A stretch of DNA of 64,000 nt from an uncultured Erysipelotrichaceae bacterium (GCA_902793315.1 CADBCT010000002.1:2973-66972); one strand, 5' to 3'. Counted from the stretch's first letter, positions 45,833 to 58,606 are shown. The notes: generated by a model not told the origin, from the sequence alone. Program-made: numbers and translations.

Positions 45833-46960
45833 CTATTTAGTAGTGTTTTCAAGAATATATTTCATATAATCTGTACATTTACTATCATTTTCTTTATCAA
45901 TATCCATTTTTATTAAAGTCATACTTTCATTATCAGCATAGATATAATAATATATTTTCTTGTTTTCATCATAATGTACTTGATACTCAATATCATTATG
46001 AGTTTCTGATTTTAATTCAGTAAGTAATGGATATGATTTTTTCAAATACTCTAATCCTACTGATTGCATTGTTTTAATAGAATCTAAATGATTTTCTGTC
46101 GTTTTTACTATTGAAAAAGTACATACATTACTATCATCAGATACTTTAGCTAAACCTTCTATATAGTAATAATCTTCTTCTTGGTATTTTGCTTCACTAT
46201 AAGGTCTTTCTATGTCTTTAAAATCTTTTGGTATTGCAACCTTTAATCCAAAATCTTTGTCTGCTACAGCATCATTCTTTTTTTCAAAATTATATCCATT
46301 TATACTATATGATAATACGCCAATTAGAGCCAAGACAACAAATGCTTTTGGATCTACTCCACCCATTTGCATACATCTTTTCTTTTGTTCATTATAATCA
46401 TTAGTAGAAGCCATTATTTCTGCAACTGTTTTCTTACAATGCTCAAAATAATCTTTTTTAAATCTAGTTGCATAAATAACCGAAGCAATAAAATGAGCTA
46501 TACCTACTATTCCAATAAATAGTATGGAATTAAGATAAGTTGCAAATATAGTTAAAGCATTAAATATTAAGAAAAAAACTCCTTGTACATAGAATTTTCT
46601 ATATATTAAATAAACAGATGGAAAAAGAAGTGTTCCCCATGAAAAACCACCCTTCTCAAAGACCTGTAATTTATTACCTGTAAATAAATCCAATAGTTTT
46701 TCTTCTGGATTAATTACTTTTTCTTCTATTTCCACTTTTGTTGTAAGCATATTTTCATTTTCTAATGGATTGCCTTCCGGTCTAAGTGCTTTTGATTCGT
46801 CAGCAACAGTTCCTGTTTCTACCATATTATTCGCTGGTTTTGATGTTTCAACTACAGGTTCATTTAATACCTGCTGTGTTTCATTTTGTTGTGGTTTTTC
46901 TTTTTCACTAGTACCATATATATCTAACAAACTATTACTTTCATTTTTATTATCATTCAT
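45833..46960 (-). CDS. Hypothetical membrane protein (disordered N-terminus, DUF2628-like TM core, C-terminal ectodomain)
   Basis: Start is at the ATG at 46960 (SD AGAGGTG). GGFSWGTLLFPSVYLIYRKFYVQGVFFLIFNAL resembles DUF2628-type membrane segments. Confidence 0.5.
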   Translation of the reverse strand: MNDNKNESNSLLDIYGTSEKEKPQQNETQQVLNEPVVETSKPANNMVETGTVADESKALRPEGNPLENENMLTTKVEIEEKVINPEEKLLDLFTGNKLQVFEKGGFSWGTLLFPSVYLIYRKFYVQGVFFLIFNALTIFATYLNSILFIGIVGIAHFIASVIYATRFKKDYFEHCKKTVAEIMASTNDYNEQKKRCMQMGGVDPKAFVVLALIGVLSYSINGYNFEKKNDAVADKDFGLKVAIPKDFKDIERPYSEAKYQEEDYYYIEGLAKVSDDSNVCTFSIVKTTENHLDSIKTMQSVGLEYLKKSYPLLTELKSETHNDIEYQVHYDENKKIYYYIYADNESMTLIKMDIDKENDSKCTDYMKYILENTTK

Positions 46961-47030
46961 AAAAACACCTCTATTATAATATATCATATTTTAATCTAGA
47001 AAAAATAAAAAAAGTATCAATTGATACTTT

Positions 47031-48860
47031 TTATTTATGATATACACTGCCAGTTAATTCTTTAATAATACCATTATATTCATCAATACTTAAAGGCATT
47101 TCACTGAATAAAGCATTGTACATAGAATTTCCGTTTTCTAATAATCTATTAACTTTATTAATAGATACTAAATTACCATTAATATTATAAGTTCTTAAAC
47201 CATCACGATATTCATCTAAATTAATTGAATCTAAATCTACTTTATTATTCAATTCTACTTTATTAGGAATAAATTCCTCTAATTCTTCATCAGCTATATA
47301 AAATCTTTTAGTAAGTACTTTATCTAATTCATCTTTACTATCTATATGAGTTTCAAATGCTTTTAAAGCTTCTAATCTTAATAATTTATCACTATTAAGA
47401 ATATTTAAATCATTCTCTAAAAAACTCTCATAACCCAATTCAATTAATCTATCAATAATTAAAACCAAATTATTATTAGTTAAAAATTTATAATTACTAG
47501 TTGTTTTTAAAGAATTAAGTAAATTATAAGTATTTAGTATTTCTAAATTATCTTTTAATAAATTAGAATACATAAACATAATTCCAATTGATTCAAAGAA
47601 AATACTAGGATTAATATTATAACTATACAATACTTCTAAATTATTAGTATAAGCTTGATACTTAGAAGAATTTTTATAAAACAAATCATTATTTTTAATA
47701 ATAAATTCTAAACTCAAATAACCCTTATCAACAAATTCTTTGATTTGTAACACTTGTTTTAAATCACTATTTCTTAATACTTTAATTGTTTGATCAACAC
47801 TTAAATTAAACTTAGAAATAATTTTTAACATACTTTCTACATCTTCTAAGCTATTATTCATAATTCTTTCAATATCATGCAAACCATTAGTAATGCCATA
47901 ATCATGTAATAATGCTTGATATTTAAGTTTATTGTTCTTATTTAAATGTTGTAGTTCATTATTTAATTTTTCATAATACTTATTATTATGTTCATTAATT
48001 AATTCTAAAACAGCATATTTAATATTTAAATCTTTAATCTTACTAACTATTTCACGAGCATTAGTTACTTCATCAGTTGATAATCCTTTATCAAGTAATT
48101 CTAATGCAGTATCAATATTAAATAATTCTTTATTATTATTTCTAACAAATTGCTTTTCTTTTCTTTCTTCTTCATCAACAAATGTTCTTATTCTATTAAC
48201 ATCTTTAAAGAGTCTAGAAACATCATAATTGTCACGATAAACCTTTTTTAATAATAAACTCTTTTCTTTTTCCTTAAGTCTTAAATCATCTAGTTCGTTA
48301 GCAACATACTCTGCTTCACTTTTCATTGTTCGATATGCCATATAGGCAACTATTAATTGTAAGAAATTAGATTCTTGTTCTTTATAAAACTCAAAGTAAT
48401 TAGCCAAATCAATATCTTTACAGTTATCAACCTTTTTTATATCCTTGAGAATTTTAAAATATGATCTATCTTCTTCAATTAAACCAGATACACCAAGTGC
48501 TGCTTTAAAAATATTTTTTTCTTTTAAATAATTAATTATTTCATCAATGTTATCGGCAGCATCAATATTTATCGTCAATTGAATAAAGTCATGAAGATTG
48601 TCTATTTCACTAATTTCTAAAAAAAATCTAAATGATTCAAATCTATCATCTATTTCTTCAATACTCCATTTACTACCATTAAGATAGTATGCACATTTCA
48701 TGTATTCAAAAATATCAACATCAATAAAATCTTCTATTCTAGAAATATCATTATTTTCTAAATACTTTTTACAATAATCATAACGATAGTCTTTTTCATA
48801 TGGTCTAGTTAATTCTTCTTTTCTTATATCAACTAACTCAGTAATTCTTTCTCTAGTCAT
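47031..48860 (-). CDS. Hypothetical all-helical repeat protein (609 aa)
   Basis: Overlaps the upstream ORF by 8 nt, with SD AAGGTGA inside that gene. The C-terminal half shows about 30-35-aa helical repeats. The family is not recognised. Confidence 0.5.
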   Translation of the reverse strand: MTRERITELVDIRKEELTRPYEKDYRYDYCKKYLENNDISRIEDFIDVDIFEYMKCAYYLNGSKWSIEEIDDRFESFRFFLEISEIDNLHDFIQLTINIDAADNIDEIINYLKEKNIFKAALGVSGLIEEDRSYFKILKDIKKVDNCKDIDLANYFEFYKEQESNFLQLIVAYMAYRTMKSEAEYVANELDDLRLKEKEKSLLLKKVYRDNYDVSRLFKDVNRIRTFVDEEERKEKQFVRNNNKELFNIDTALELLDKGLSTDEVTNAREIVSKIKDLNIKYAVLELINEHNNKYYEKLNNELQHLNKNNKLKYQALLHDYGITNGLHDIERIMNNSLEDVESMLKIISKFNLSVDQTIKVLRNSDLKQVLQIKEFVDKGYLSLEFIIKNNDLFYKNSSKYQAYTNNLEVLYSYNINPSIFFESIGIMFMYSNLLKDNLEILNTYNLLNSLKTTSNYKFLTNNNLVLIIDRLIELGYESFLENDLNILNSDKLLRLEALKAFETHIDSKDELDKVLTKRFYIADEELEEFIPNKVELNNKVDLDSINLDEYRDGLRTYNINGNLVSINKVNRLLENGNSMYNALFSEMPLSIDEYNGIIKELTGSVYHK

Positions 48861-49806
48861 GATTATTCACCTTCTTTAATTCTACTTCAGCTTCTTTAGG
48901 ACTAATTAAGTTGAATAATTCTTCTACATATAAATCATTTAATTCCATAAATTCTTTATCTTTAATCTTTTCTTTTAATTTAGCTTCATTCTCTTTAAAA
49001 TGACTAACTTTTCTAGTTAAAGTATCTTTATATAATTTATCAGTATCAGTCTTTTTAACAAAGGCAGTAATCAAACCATATGTATTTTTATCTAACCTCG
49101 AAAATACTACTCTAGTTTTAAATCCTTTTACTTCTGAAATACCTGTTAAATGATAATTACTTGTAAAAGTTTTAACATTTTTAAAAGTACCATTAATAAT
49201 TGAATTAATTAACTCTAAGAAAGAATCATAATAGTCACTAGGAATATGTTCTAATTCATCAATTACACGAATATTACCGCTAATAGTAGGTATTAAGACA
49301 ATTCTATTTTTATGTTCTTGTACTTCTACTATTTCTTCTTTATTCATAAATTCTCTTATATATTTAATCTTTGTTTGTTCTTTGTTAATCAAATCTTTAC
49401 ATTCAATTAATTCTTCTTTAGATAAAGAATCATCTAATAAAAATTCATTAATTTCTTTTATTTCTTTATAAGATTCAGCTATTAAACGATTAATAATATC
49501 TTCGTAGTAATAATTATCTTTAGTGGGCAAAATATTAATAATATCTTCATAAGTAAAATTATCATCTAATGTTTTATAATTATCTAAATAAAATGATATT
49601 TCATCATTAAAATCATCATCTTCTAATACTATTTCTGATGATGCTACTAATTTTAAATCATTTGAATTATCAATACTTTCTTCAATAGTATCACTATGTA
49701 AATGTTTTTTTAGTCTTGATAGTTCTGATCTTTTTAAACGTGCTTCTTTACAACCTGATTCAATTACTTTAAGTAAATCATTAATATCTTTTTCCGTAAT
49801 AGCCAT
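48853..49806 (-). CDS. Hypothetical protein with a C-terminal RelE/Gp49(HigB)-like region
   Basis: ATG at 49806 has SD AGGGGTGA. The C-terminal GISEVKGFKTRVVFSRLDKNTYGLITAFVKKTDTDKLYKD resembles the (E)LR..yRi.f......i.l...F.KKt.k core of Gp49/HigB-type toxins. This is weak, by-eye evidence. Confidence 0.45.
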   Translation of the reverse strand: MAITEKDINDLLKVIESGCKEARLKRSELSRLKKHLHSDTIEESIDNSNDLKLVASSEIVLEDDDFNDEISFYLDNYKTLDDNFTYEDIINILPTKDNYYYEDIINRLIAESYKEIKEINEFLLDDSLSKEELIECKDLINKEQTKIKYIREFMNKEEIVEVQEHKNRIVLIPTISGNIRVIDELEHIPSDYYDSFLELINSIINGTFKNVKTFTSNYHLTGISEVKGFKTRVVFSRLDKNTYGLITAFVKKTDTDKLYKDTLTRKVSHFKENEAKLKEKIKDKEFMELNDLYVEELFNLISPKEAEVELKKVNNHD

Positions 49807-49830
49807 AATCTCACCCCTAAAACTGGACAT

Positions 49831-55291: not shown

Positions 55292-55328
55292 TTAAAAAAA
55301 AGAAAAGGAATATTCCTTTTCTTTTATT
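55292..55328 (-). terminator. Strong rho-independent terminator after the pilin gene
   Basis: Near-perfect palindrome AAAAGAAAAGGAATATTCCTTTTCTTTT followed by a run of T on the minus strand. Confidence 0.85.
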
Positions 55329-55893
55329 TATATAATGTTCTTGATTTAGAAGTACATCCAGTACTTGATGCTCCCCAACCAGTCCAAGAAGAACCGCAGG
55401 AATATCCGCAACAGCCACCATCTGTACATGTTCTATTTCCACAACAAGACTTTGAGCATTGTTTTGGTGCTGCTTTATATTTACAAGTTCGACATCCACT
55501 ACACACATTATGCCATTTCCATTGTTTACATGAACCGCTATAATACGCAACATCGGCACAATATTTCTTCAATTCACATTTATCACCACATTTGGAACAA
55601 TTTGCTCTTGTTTCATAATACCAACCACAACAACCACCATCTCTACAAACTTTATAACCGCAACATGGTTTACTACATGTATTAGGAACATTTCTCTTAA
55701 TATATTTATATTGTTTGTATGCCGTTACTTTTACAGTACAAGTCATATAGTTATTAACATTATCATAAACAGTATACTTAACAGTATCTTTTACTCCGGT
55801 TTCTTTATGATCACTTCCACCAGGACAATTTTTAACTCCTGATCCACCATTATCACCACAAGTATACTTAATTGTTTCCACCATTATCACCAC
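55324..55893 (-). CDS. Cys-rich C-terminal continuation of the giant pilin gene, out of frame because of the 34-bp duplication (unlikely to be an independent gene)
   Basis: Track ORF of 189 aa with no SD before its ATG. Its first residues ETIKYTCGDNGG repeat the last residues of the upstream ORF. It contains 25 Cys, 22 of them in the last 117 aa. Confidence 0.7.
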   Translation of the reverse strand: MVIMVETIKYTCGDNGGSGVKNCPGGSDHKETGVKDTVKYTVYDNVNNYMTCTVKVTAYKQYKYIKRNVPNTCSKPCCGYKVCRDGGCCGWYYETRANCSKCGDKCELKKYCADVAYYSGSCKQWKWHNVCSGCRTCKYKAAPKQCSKSCCGNRTCTDGGCCGYSCGSSWTGWGASSTGCTSKSRTLYK

Positions 55894-55910
55894 AAGTATA
55901 CTTAATTGTT
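55843..55910. repeat. Perfect 34-bp tandem duplication (2 x TCCACCATTATCACCACAAGTATACTTAATTGTT)
   Basis: Read directly from the sequence. Copy 1 is 55843..55876 and copy 2 is 55877..55910, identical and head-to-tail. 34 is not a multiple of 3. Confidence 0.97.
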
Positions 55911-58549
55911 ACACCACTAGTTTCATTAAGATTACTTTTAGATCCACTACACGTTGGTTTTTGTTTATCAACATAAACATTCATTGATGTCCTTGAACAT
56001 TCAGCAACATCCGCACCGGCTGGTGAGTTATCAGCTTTGTCTATAACTGTATAACTATTCTTCTGAGTCATAACTTTATATGTATGCTCATCAGCAGTAT
56101 AAGCAACACTTGAAATAATACCATTTACACAGCCACTTCCACCAGTATCATTACATGTCTTTTTAACAGTAGTTCCTGACTTACGCCATGAAGTAGATTC
56201 ACCAGTAATAGTACAAGTTGGAGAATTATGATCTATTCTAACTGCATTAGCTTTTGAACAATCAGTGACATTACCCGCTTTATCGCGAACCTTACCACCA
56301 GAATTATTATCAATAGCTCCAGCATTATCAGTATTTATATTTACTTCATAATCATGATAGAAAGTTAATTTCCAAGTTGGTAAATCCTTTAAGCAACCAC
56401 TTGCTTTAGTAGAACCATCGGTATCATAGTTACCACTACTATCAGTAGTTCCATCTTCTTGACAATCCGCTTTAACTCTAGCAATTTCATTAATTCCTAA
56501 CCAACCATACGAACTTTGCAAGTCTGTATAGTTAGACCAACTAGATGAACTTGTTTTTCTAGCAAGTTTTGATATCTTACACACTGGTTTTGTAAAATCA
56601 ACCCAAATTGGTTTTAATCCAGTATAAGCAGTACAATTACCTGCTTTATCACAGTTTTTAAACTCTACTTTATTCTTTCCTTCATAAGTAGCGTTAAATT
56701 CAACTTTTCCTACATCACCATATTCATCTTTATTACTGTTATATTCTTGAACAACGTGATATACAAATTTATCCCAATCAGATAATGTTACTTTAGAAGG
56801 TCCAGATGTATTATCTCTTTTATAATCATCATTTACTTTTGCAGTAACAGTTTTATTAATCCAATGTGTCGTACCAGGAACATAATTCTTAGTTCCATCA
56901 TCAACATATGTATAAGAGATGTCTGATGGTAATGGAGGTGCACTCTTATCGATATTAGCTTCAATAAATAACTCTGTAGTATTATTAGCAGCATCCTTTA
57001 CTGTTAATCTTCCTCTTCTTCTACCTTCATCTTTAAAATGAATGTAAATTGTTTTCGTTAAAACACCACAGTTAGAGTTTTCAGGTGCTGCGATTGTTTC
57101 TGACTTTACCTCATCCTTGTTAGATGTAGTATATGTCTCATATCCAGAACCAGGAGCCGTTGAAGTAATATATGATCCATTAGTTTCCCATGACCAACTC
57201 GCTAAATGAAGACTATCAGAAATTTGAATTTTATATACAACACCATTTGGATACCTATTATTATTCATCCAATCTGATACTAAATTATTATAGGCATTAT
57301 AACTAAGTGTTCCCGTTTCTGCGTTATCTTTAACTTCCATACCAGCTGTATAAGTACTAGTCTCATCACTAACATCACCATCATTATCTGTGTCAGCAAT
57401 ATTACCGTTAGCATCAGCTCTATATGCTCCTAATACCTTTATAGTTGGTCTGTTTTTATCAACATTTACCCTGACACGACAAGGGTTTGAATTATTTACT
57501 TCAATGTCACATAAACTATTCCCAGTTATCTCTGAAGAAGTCGATGCAAGGTTACTATTACGTGCATTATCTGAAACTTGAATATAAGCCCACTCAGCAT
57601 CTTCTTGATCATCATTTGGCCAAGATCTTGCGAATGTTGGTCTTAAACAACCACTACCCTTACCATCATCACAAGTTACTGTAACAATTCTAGAAGCATT
57701 ACCTATTCCTATCCAATCATTGGCACCACTTGCCGCACCGTCTACACCTTTACATGTAGGAGGAATAGTATCTTGATACGTACTAGCAGTATTACTAGCA
57801 TCAAATGTCCTTGTACTAGTTCCACCTTCAACATTTATAACAGTAACTTCAACCGAGAAATTAGTAACATGAGCTACATCCATATAGTCAGAAAGCTTTC
57901 TAGCAACTGATATTTCATTATAACCATTTCCGCTTAAAGTACCAGAATTATATACTTCTTGCATATATTTATTTTCAGTTGTTTCCGCAGAAATTATATA
58001 ACTATATCCTTCAATAGCTATCTTTTCGCCATCTTTTTCTCCTCCGCTAAGTTCCATATAAATAACAGCTTTATTAACATTATTCATAACATCAAAAGAG
58101 GATGAATTAGCATCATCAGAGAAGTGTACTTGAATGATAGGAGTTACAGCATCCGCTTCAGTATATTCATCATCACCACATAAAATAATTGATTCATATT
58201 CATATTTGGTTTTTGATACTTTACGAACCATAACAAAACTATTGGTCATACAATCATCACCAGAAGAGTTCTTAATATCATCTTTTATGTAATTCTTATC
58301 TCTTAAAGTTTGAGCATATACTCTGGTTTTTCCACCAATATCTCGAGGCAATTTATCGGTATTAGATTGCATATAACTTTGTGCTGCTTGTTTCAATGTT
58401 CTAGCATACTGTTCATCACTTTCTTTATGAGCTCGATTTATTAATCTTGTAACACTCGCTATTGCAACGACACTTAGTACTCCTAACACCACAATAACAC
58501 CAAGCAATTCTATCATCGTAAATCCTTTTCTATTAGACTTATTTATCAT
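55868..58549 (-). CDS. Giant modular type IV pilin-like protein (893-aa frame, truncated by the duplication)
   Basis: Class III signal MINKSNRKG|FTMIELLGVIVVLGVLSVVAIASV (Gly-1, Phe+1, Glu+5). A pilin head with a Cys100/Cys124 pair is followed by repeated modules with PTC...TCxDxGxSGC and VxDxAxN strands. SD AAGGTGA. Confidence 0.8.
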   Translation of the reverse strand: MINKSNRKGFTMIELLGVIVVLGVLSVVAIASVTRLINRAHKESDEQYARTLKQAAQSYMQSNTDKLPRDIGGKTRVYAQTLRDKNYIKDDIKNSSGDDCMTNSFVMVRKVSKTKYEYESIILCGDDEYTEADAVTPIIQVHFSDDANSSSFDVMNNVNKAVIYMELSGGEKDGEKIAIEGYSYIISAETTENKYMQEVYNSGTLSGNGYNEISVARKLSDYMDVAHVTNFSVEVTVINVEGGTSTRTFDASNTASTYQDTIPPTCKGVDGAASGANDWIGIGNASRIVTVTCDDGKGSGCLRPTFARSWPNDDQEDAEWAYIQVSDNARNSNLASTSSEITGNSLCDIEVNNSNPCRVRVNVDKNRPTIKVLGAYRADANGNIADTDNDGDVSDETSTYTAGMEVKDNAETGTLSYNAYNNLVSDWMNNNRYPNGVVYKIQISDSLHLASWSWETNGSYITSTAPGSGYETYTTSNKDEVKSETIAAPENSNCGVLTKTIYIHFKDEGRRRGRLTVKDAANNTTELFIEANIDKSAPPLPSDISYTYVDDGTKNYVPGTTHWINKTVTAKVNDDYKRDNTSGPSKVTLSDWDKFVYHVVQEYNSNKDEYGDVGKVEFNATYEGKNKVEFKNCDKAGNCTAYTGLKPIWVDFTKPVCKISKLARKTSSSSWSNYTDLQSSYGWLGINEIARVKADCQEDGTTDSSGNYDTDGSTKASGCLKDLPTWKLTFYHDYEVNINTDNAGAIDNNSGGKVRDKAGNVTDCSKANAVRIDHNSPTCTITGESTSWRKSGTTVKKTCNDTGGSGCVNGIISSVAYTADEHTYKVMTQKNSYTVIDKADNSPAGADVAECSRTSMNVYVDKQKPTCSGSKSNLNETSGVTIKYTCGDNGGNN

Positions 58550-58577: not shown

Positions 58578-58606
58578 ATTTTATAATATTCGTTATTTTA
58601 TGTCAA
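58578..58606 (-). promoter_or_regulatory. Sigma-A promoter of the giant pilin gene
   Basis: Minus strand has TTGACA (58606..58601), a 17-nt spacer, then TAAAAT (58583..58578), downstream of a T-rich tract that follows rpmF. Confidence 0.65.

Follow-up and report, generated by a model that had tools for sequence, protein, structure and literature searches.

The DNA analysed here, a 64-kb stretch referred to below as the window, carries on its minus strand a gene of an uncultured ruminant-gut bacterium whose product, once a frameshift is repaired, is a 1,063-aa prepilin-type protein with a Cys-rich tail at its C-terminus (Table 1). The gene lies among housekeeping genes: MYG1, a gene for a 194-aa membrane protein, yceD and rpmF upstream, addB and addA downstream, with the start of addB 56 bp beyond the pilin gene in every allele. 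A promoter-like site and an intrinsic-terminator-like hairpin directly after the tail stop codon bracket a putative transcription unit; the promoter-like site is a consensus match only, and such sites are as numerous in the region as shuffling predicts. Downstream of addA (45833..49830), three consecutive ORFs of 325, 609 and 384 aa are conserved in a related sequence (L002) and match no Pfam family, except for a sub-threshold match to DUF2628.

Table 1 Features of the pilin locus in the window, with positions counted from its first nucleotide.
Feature	Position	Strand	Remarks
Promoter-like site TTGACA-17-TAAAAT	58578..58606	-	11 of 12 consensus matches; just 5' of the pilin start codon
893-aa ORF	55868..58549	-	Pilin module and chain of beta-rich modules with TCxDxxGSGC Cys pairs; ends prematurely at the duplication frameshift
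Class III (prepilin) leader MINKSNRKG	58523..58549	-	Predicted cleavage after Gly9, between G and FTMIE
Perfect 34-bp tandem duplication, 2 x TCCACCATTATCACCACAAGTATACTTAATTGTT	55843..55910		Shifts the frame
189-aa ORF	55324..55893	-	Resumes the pilin past the frameshift: remainder of the last beta-sandwich, then the Cys-rich tail with its stop codon
Hypervariable cassette	55368..55698	-	From just past ...KQYKYI to about ...GWGxS; 35-60% nt identity between classes
Cys-rich tail	55324..55677	-	117 aa, 22 Cys
Repeat copy 1, CSKPCCGYKVCRDGGCCGW	55621..55677	-	Residues 73-91 of the 189-aa ORF
Repeat copy 2, CSKSCCGNRTCTDGGCCGY	55402..55458	-	Residues 146-164 of the 189-aa ORF
Conserved C-terminal stretch, SCGSSWTGWGASSTGCTSKSRTLYK	55327..55401	-	Best-conserved part of the tail across the family
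Intrinsic-terminator-like hairpin	55298..55325	-	12-bp stem, then T run; overlaps the stop codon, upstream of addB; kept in L001

The gene encodes a giant modular prepilin-type protein

The product begins with a class III signal peptide, MINKSNRKG followed by FTMIELLGVIVVLGVL, with Phe at +1 and Glu at +5. It scored 25.8 bits against the Pfam N_methyl model PF07963 (GA cut-off 21.2) and 21.9 against TIGR02532 (cut-off 16.3). The short basic leader ending in Gly, the hydrophobic alpha1-N and the Glu at +5 by which the class III signal peptide of a type IV pilin or type 4 filament subunit is recognised are all present. By definition, a modular pilin joins a pilin module to one or more structured modules with no specific link to type IV pilus biology (Raynaud et al. 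2021, PMC8179133). Here, ~930 residues follow the pilin module, and the last beta-sandwich module among them was modelled by AF2 with a pLDDT of 70-89. The 893-aa body repeats Cys pairs of the TCxDxxGSGC type between residues ~260 and 900 (e.g. VTVTCDDGKGSGC, KKTCNDTGGSGC and KYTCGDNGGSGVKNC). Its 22 Cys make up 2.4% of the residues, a share near the top for the window, and its modules have no Pfam match.

The organism possesses PBP, MraY and FtsW genes and therefore has a cell wall. Regular-expression searches of the window found no thiol-disulfide oxidoreductase and no exported thioredoxin-fold CxxC protein. Neither a second prepilin motif nor a GspE-type Walker box or assembly ATPase was present in the window, and genes for a prepilin peptidase, pilus assembly or a thiol-disulfide oxidoreductase were found neither in the window nor beside any related locus.

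A tandem duplication interrupts the window allele

In silico deletion of one copy of the 34-bp duplication fused the 893-aa and 189-aa ORFs into a single ORF of 1,063 aa. The duplication did not occur in any of the ten further alleles read as DNA, nor in the full-length proteins listed in the 90% identity cluster of the 893-aa ORF. This cluster has 32 members, with intact forms of 1,063, 1,074 and 1,075 aa; the 1,063-aa forms are P0007, P0012 and P0014, and nine forms of 1,074 or 1,075 aa are among the cluster matches listed. P0007 (MBQ3297941.1, 'MAG: type II secretion system protein [Bacilli bacterium]') is represented on 41 or more contigs of up to 1.07 Mb. The repaired pilin postulated in the first-pass annotation proved to be real, P0012 differing from it by a single amino acid in the body and being identical in the tail. 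The same annotation had allowed that the tail might always lie out of frame and never be translated. Its reading frame is in fact open in most strains, with intact copies on dozens of ruminant gut metagenome contigs whose sample names refer to cattle, sheep and goat gut.

All of the sequences compared are metagenome assemblies, and the duplication represents a knock-out of the tail private to this strain if it is not an artefact of assembly. If it is real, the source strain would make a pilin without the tail and without part of the last module; the downstream 189-aa ORF has no signal peptide. Tandem duplications can revert, and an on/off role is conceivable.

The Cys-rich tail contains a diverged internal repeat

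Translation of the minus strand yielded a tail in which Cys accounts for 18.8% of residues, in agreement with the annotation, as compared with a median of 0.9% in the 50 ORFs of at least 150 aa in the window. The binomial probability of at least 22 Cys among 117 residues at that background frequency is about 2e-22. Firmicutes normally exclude Cys from exported proteins (PMC2823432), and against this background the density of the tail is, as had been claimed, exceptional for an exported Firmicute protein.

Two copies of the motif CSKxCCGxxxCxDGGCCG flank the centre of the tail. The first had been placed correctly; the second had been assigned to residues 146-163 of the 189-aa ORF and in fact extends one residue further. 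The segments between them, CSKCGDKCELKKYC and SCKQWKWHNVCSGCRTCKYK, are as described. The copies have 13 of 19 amino acids and 37 of 57 nucleotides in common, and in 500 composition-preserving shuffles of the tail the amino acid score never rose above 9 of 19 (mean 6.8). The repeat is thus genuine, and its copies have diverged in DNA sequence; blastn aligned 55406..55446 to 55625..55665 with 75.6% identity. The two-motif layout is common to relatives whose bodies are only 44-61% identical, from which it follows that the duplication is older than the divergence of the family, as expected of the old internal duplication that the annotation had proposed. The two copies within one protein also tend to share lineage-specific residues, DGG in both copies of the type A tail carried by the window and SGS in both copies of L023, where 15 of 19 residues are identical. 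Tails showing such shared residues are those of the window, L023, P0020 and L011a, which suggests concerted evolution or structural co-variation of the motifs.

Three overlapping off-frame ORFs of 91-106 aa span the tail region. Only one such ORF occurs in the alternative, type B allele, and the local GC content is 37%, as compared with 26% for the window. These ORFs are therefore by-products of local composition, and their dismissal as spurious is upheld.

The tail defines a very small family found on prepilin-type proteins

The annotation had made its case conditional on the tail not belonging to a known, characterised Cys-rich family. A Pfam search of the tail returned no family at E≤10, a PHROGs search gave no match, and a tail profile run against all PDB sequences gave no match at E≤10. 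The sole match in NCBIfam was a very weak one to L33 (E=0.12), which is zinc-ribbon-like and covers tail residues 16-42. Known Cys-rich families (TSP1, granulin, EGF, metallothionein, zinc ribbons and SCIFF-type peptides) gave no significant profile match, and tblastn of the tail against phage genomes gave none at all.

A profile search with the tail and a survey of the proteins that carry it had also been advocated. Exhaustive HMM searching of 1.84 billion (1.84e9) protein representatives with a two-sequence tail profile produced 10 matches, and all full-length matches (905-1,058 aa) were prepilin-type proteins that end in the tail. The full-length homologues came from this search and from cluster look-up. 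A word-indexed protein search gave only two short ORF fragments and missed the full-length tail-bearing proteins; taken alone, it would have been misleading as to rarity. A scan of genome contigs with the single protein and an exact 47-mer scan of JGI metagenomes gave no match. Judged by its sequence, the tail is a protein module of a new, very small domain family, carried on a protein of known kind, a modular type IV pilin.

Genome and metagenome collections yielded further members from 'Bacilli/Bacillales' MAGs of the ruminant gut, some of them present as two or three paralogues in tandem. The family layout reads ...Y[KR]Y[IR]KKN..TC..SCCGYKxC....C(C)G, a variable Cys-containing centre, then C...(C)CG..TCT...CCGY.CGS.W..WG.SSTGC.S.SR.LY[KY]-COOH. 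Two or three giant pilin-like genes stand in tandem in L012 (3283..14448), L013 (3270..11036), L016 (7968..15744) and L011 (1..4483). Their products (1,013-1,398 aa) each have a C-terminus of their own, some Cys-rich and some not; small single-TM ORFs lie between the genes, and assembly genes are not adjacent.

The human-gut relatives L015 (95..3007) and L016 (7968..11402), from an 'uncultured Mollicutes' UMGS532 genome and a Hadza MAG, preserve the synteny yceD-rpmF-pilin-addB. Their pilins end in unrelated C-termini with moderate Cys only, which shows that the terminal module can be replaced while the locus stays the same. L025 (2828..5143), L026 (727..2877) and L027 (2828..5134) encode prepilin-type proteins of 717-772 aa with at least two genuine thrombospondin type 1 repeats (TSRs), which exceed the gathering cut-offs of PF00090 (TSP_1) and PF19028 (TSP1_spondin). 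A further Cys-rich end follows the TSRs (…CCTIEYYGGRYCYNYFGASCYGNGC…FYFKRC), and a VYVDxxxPxC beta-sandwich module is common to these proteins and that of the window. TSRs on bacterial pilins appear to be unusual.

When the last beta-sandwich and the tail were modelled together by AF2, the tail had a pLDDT below 50, and Foldseek searches of the PDB with this model gave nothing at E≤0.001. The tail alone was modelled with a mean pLDDT of 48.7 and a pTM of 0.25. The final strand SRTLYK reached a pLDDT of 84 with the beta-sandwich included and remained below 50 without it, which suggests that the tail may be an excursion from the last module, anchored in it at both ends.

Deeply diverged tail alleles recombine between near-identical backgrounds

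Comparison of the window with a second sequence of the locus, L001, revealed ~98% DNA identity over the gene body, the last ~40 nt, the terminator and addB. Between these, a cassette of ~330 bp is only 35-60% identical at the nucleotide level, with indels. The first-pass annotation had made no mention of this cassette. Within the species, type A and type B proteins have bodies that are 98-99% identical and tails that are 52-59% identical, the latter equal to the identity of tails from different genera and falling within the range seen for tails of proteins whose bodies are 44-61% identical. Both classes are common: the cluster members listed place type A on 46 contigs or more and type B on 30 or more. 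L023, the syntenic orthologue from a sister species (61% aa identity in the body), carries a third class in which A-like and B-like elements are mixed.

By the Nei-Gojobori method, body dS is ~0.05 for any pair of alleles and dN ~0.007, with dN/dS of 0.07-0.29. Tails of types A and B differ with a dS of 1.1-1.6 and a dN of 0.52-0.56, as compared with a dS of 0.03-0.23 within a class. The raised tail dS points to old alleles or to import from other species. The tail dN/dS of 0.2-0.7 does not exceed 1, so that positive selection is not demonstrated. The body of the window allele (type A) is 3 aa removed from that of the type B protein P0015 and 16 aa from that of the type A protein P0007. Tail class is thus incongruent with body haplotype, and we conclude that tails have been exchanged by recombination. 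On this comparison of sequences the tail is a recombining and hypervariable cassette, of which a single species carries two deeply diverged allele classes.

In-cell diversification, by a diversity-generating retroelement (DGR) or by silent-cassette or shufflon switching rather than by recombination in the population, might produce a comparable pattern. A variable region at the 3' end of a surface-protein gene recalls DGR targets, the PilV shufflon and pilE/pilS. Against this, tblastn and blastn searches with both tail classes found the expressed copy only, in the window as in L001, and the locus contains no recombinase. Substitutions show no adenine bias, indels and differences at ~50% of nucleotides separate the classes, and the flanking genes are housekeeping genes (rpmF, yceD, addBA). 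With no template repeat, second cassette copy or recombinase in the window and no A-bias, DGR and shufflon mechanisms are unsupported, and we consider an in-cell mechanism very improbable. Neither a DGR target (no cassette repeat in the window, no A-bias, indels between classes) nor a silent-cassette or shufflon system (a single expressed copy in the window and L001) describes the locus.

A polymorphic toxin or bacteriocin-like C-terminal domain, that is, a variable disulfide-rich effector on a conserved carrier, would fit the sharp switch from conserved to divergent sequence past YKQYKYI and the exchange of the variable part by recombination, but is just as improbable given that variability stops short of the stop codon, with the last ~25 residues and the terminator conserved, that addB follows after 56 bp in each allele with no ORF of immunity-gene size, and that no toxin family in Pfam or NCBIfam was matched. 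With its conserved C-terminal end and no immunity ORF, the gene was rejected as a polymorphic toxin system.

Cysteine parity favours disulfides over metal

Within the two tail classes, Cys positions are invariant (0 of 22 and 0 of 20 variable), as compared with 16 of 106 and 12 of 120 variable sites elsewhere in the tails. Counted from the YKYI strand to the end, the number of Cys is even in 15 of 15 tail lineages (22, 20, 22, 20, 20, 24, 22, 26, 22, 14, 10, 16, 20, 22 and 22), although these lineages are related and do not amount to 15 independent trials. Most of the counts are not multiples of four. Body Cys counts are mostly even as well. Type B has exactly one Cys fewer than type A in each motif copy, which hints at a pair between the motifs. 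An even-biased Cys pattern is the established hallmark of disulfide use in exported proteins (PMC2823432), and the tail has the features of a disulfide-rich extracellular domain: its Cys are even in number, conserved, and gained or lost in pairs.

The annotation had proposed a module that was either disulfide-knotted or metal-binding. The strictly even counts, often not multiples of four, favour disulfides over metal and speak for an intramolecular disulfide framework in the tail; the metal-binding half of the proposal retains the support of CxxC elements. Under that alternative, the Cys would be ligands of Zn(Cys)4 knuckles or ribbons, an Fe-S cluster or a Cu-thiolate centre in a reducing gut, with the metal stabilising a small domain. 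Two CxxC elements (N-C-x2-C-G and C-K/R-T/S-C) are conserved in most of the family. The habitat is anaerobic, the window has no Dsb-like gene, the very weak L33 match is to a zinc-ribbon-like family, and AF2 often models metal-dependent folds poorly, as it did the tail. However, counts of 10, 14, 22 and 26 are not multiples of four and there are no conserved His or Asp ligands. Across lineages, many Cys positions change without loss of parity, a behaviour more in keeping with paired partners than with fixed sets of ligands. Moreover, no zinc-finger, metallothionein or Fe-S family was found in Pfam even at E≤10, and its abundance of Trp and Tyr sets the tail apart from metallothioneins. We therefore regard metal binding as unlikely, at perhaps one chance in a handful.

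Less probable still is that the Cys serve intermolecular cross-linking, forming disulfides to other tails, and so bundling filaments or cells, or to Cys-rich host mucin domains, in the manner of keratin-associated or spore-coat Cys-rich proteins. The vicinal CC pairs and very high Cys density do resemble those of cross-linking proteins, the tail lies at the distal C-terminus, and Cys-rich self-assembling surface proteins are known in Firmicute spores (PMC7333573). Even parity and invariant Cys beside hypervariable loops are, however, typical of intramolecular frameworks, and a generic cross-linker hardly explains the allele dimorphism.

A candidate recognition module at the end of a type IV pilin

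The rigid Cys framework, the hypervariable loops, the exchange between strains and the replacement of the module by TSRs in relatives together lead us to read the tail as a surface for recognition or adhesion. In modular pilins, binding modules are grafted onto a pilin, and such subunits can be accommodated only at the tip of the filament (PMC8179133). Our preferred reading, to which we give roughly even odds (about 0.5), is that the tail is a disulfide-stabilised, hypervariable recognition (adhesin) module located distally in a modular type IV pilin, its alleles being exchanged between strains by homologous recombination. The giant pilin would then comprise a class III signal peptide, a pilin module, a chain of beta-sandwiches and the C-terminal tail module. 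The tail, an excursion of ~110-160 residues, would leave the last beta-sandwich after ...YKQYKYI and return as the final strand ...SRTLYK, with two C-x3-CC-G-x3-C-x4-CC-G copies arranged around a variable Cys-containing centre and held together by perhaps 11 intramolecular disulfides. Hypervariable loops displayed on this Cys scaffold at the distal end could form a surface for recognition of a ligand or partner. The conserved flanks would act as arms through which homologous recombination moves diverged tail alleles between near-identical backgrounds, and the alleles may be kept by diversifying or balancing selection. The disulfides, the tip location, the binding function and the selection regime are what we infer. 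Speaking against this reading are the strongly reducing habitat (rumen and gut lumen), tail pLDDT values below 50 in both AF2 runs, the blank Foldseek search and the lack of machinery genes nearby.

A more far-reaching version, which we advance only tentatively and with less confidence than the recognition module itself, is that the tail represents a new disulfide-rich domain family that would give strain-specific recognition to the tips of type IV filaments in uncultured ruminant-gut Bacilli of small genome size. Within one species, ancient alleles, diverged to the level of genera, would be kept by balancing selection and shuffled by homologous recombination, a population-level counterpart of pilS and shufflon variation in a phylum thought to exclude Cys from exported proteins.

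A surface protein with 44 Cys, half of them within the last 117 residues and of a parity suggestive of disulfides, would imply a working route of oxidative folding in an uncultured anaerobic gut lineage; functional DsbA and VKOR enzymes can occur in anaerobic Firmicutes (PMC12453122). The idea of the modular pilin is here stretched to subunits of 1,000 residues with an undescribed terminal module. The allele dimorphism provides an easily typed locus for strain-level selection in the ruminant gut, for which recognition by host, phage or partner are candidate agents. A conserved Cys framework with free loops could also serve as a natural display scaffold for engineering.

Comparison with known systems

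Knottins and conotoxins keep an even number of invariant Cys while the residues between them change rapidly. The tail resembles them in its invariant, even Cys and changing inter-Cys residues. It differs in showing no sequence or fold match to them and in forming one domain of a bacterial surface protein of 1,000 aa, where knottins and conotoxins are free peptides.

TSRs (PF00090, PF19028), small layered disulfide-rich adhesion modules, share with the tail a local WxxWG...C motif, and genuine TSRs occupy the C-terminus of the related prepilin proteins L025-L027. The WxxWG..C and CSxCG motifs, together with the TSRs of relatives, had raised the possibility that the tail belongs to this family. 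Membership was rejected, the Pfam TSP1 models being blank at E≤10 and hhalign giving a probability of 3.8% over 14 columns.

In the R64 plasmid PilV shufflon, adjacent invertible segments are rearranged by the Rci recombinase, and the alternative C-termini of a minor type IV pilin adhesin set partner specificity. Alternative C-terminal pilin segments are common to both systems, whereas the giant pilin locus has a single cassette and no recombinase.

The D-region of type IVa pilins is pinned by one disulfide and spans ~12-30 residues; in Neisseria it is joined by the antigenic variation of pilE/pilS. Like it, the tail is a C-terminal, Cys-pinned, hypervariable pilin segment, predicted here to be surface-exposed, and recombines via conserved flanks. 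Unlike it, the tail has 20-26 Cys in 110-160 residues, silent cassettes were not found near the gene, and variation is between strains.

A parallel in architecture may be drawn with the modular type IV pilins of Streptococcus sanguinis, PilB with its vWA module and PilC with its lectin module (PMC8179133, PMC9934059). The host is likewise monoderm and the role predicted is likewise tip-exposed binding. Unlike PilB and PilC, the giant pilin is more than twice as long (1,063 aa) and includes a chain of uncharacterised beta-rich modules, and its terminal module, without a database signature, is 17-19% Cys and hypervariable within a species.
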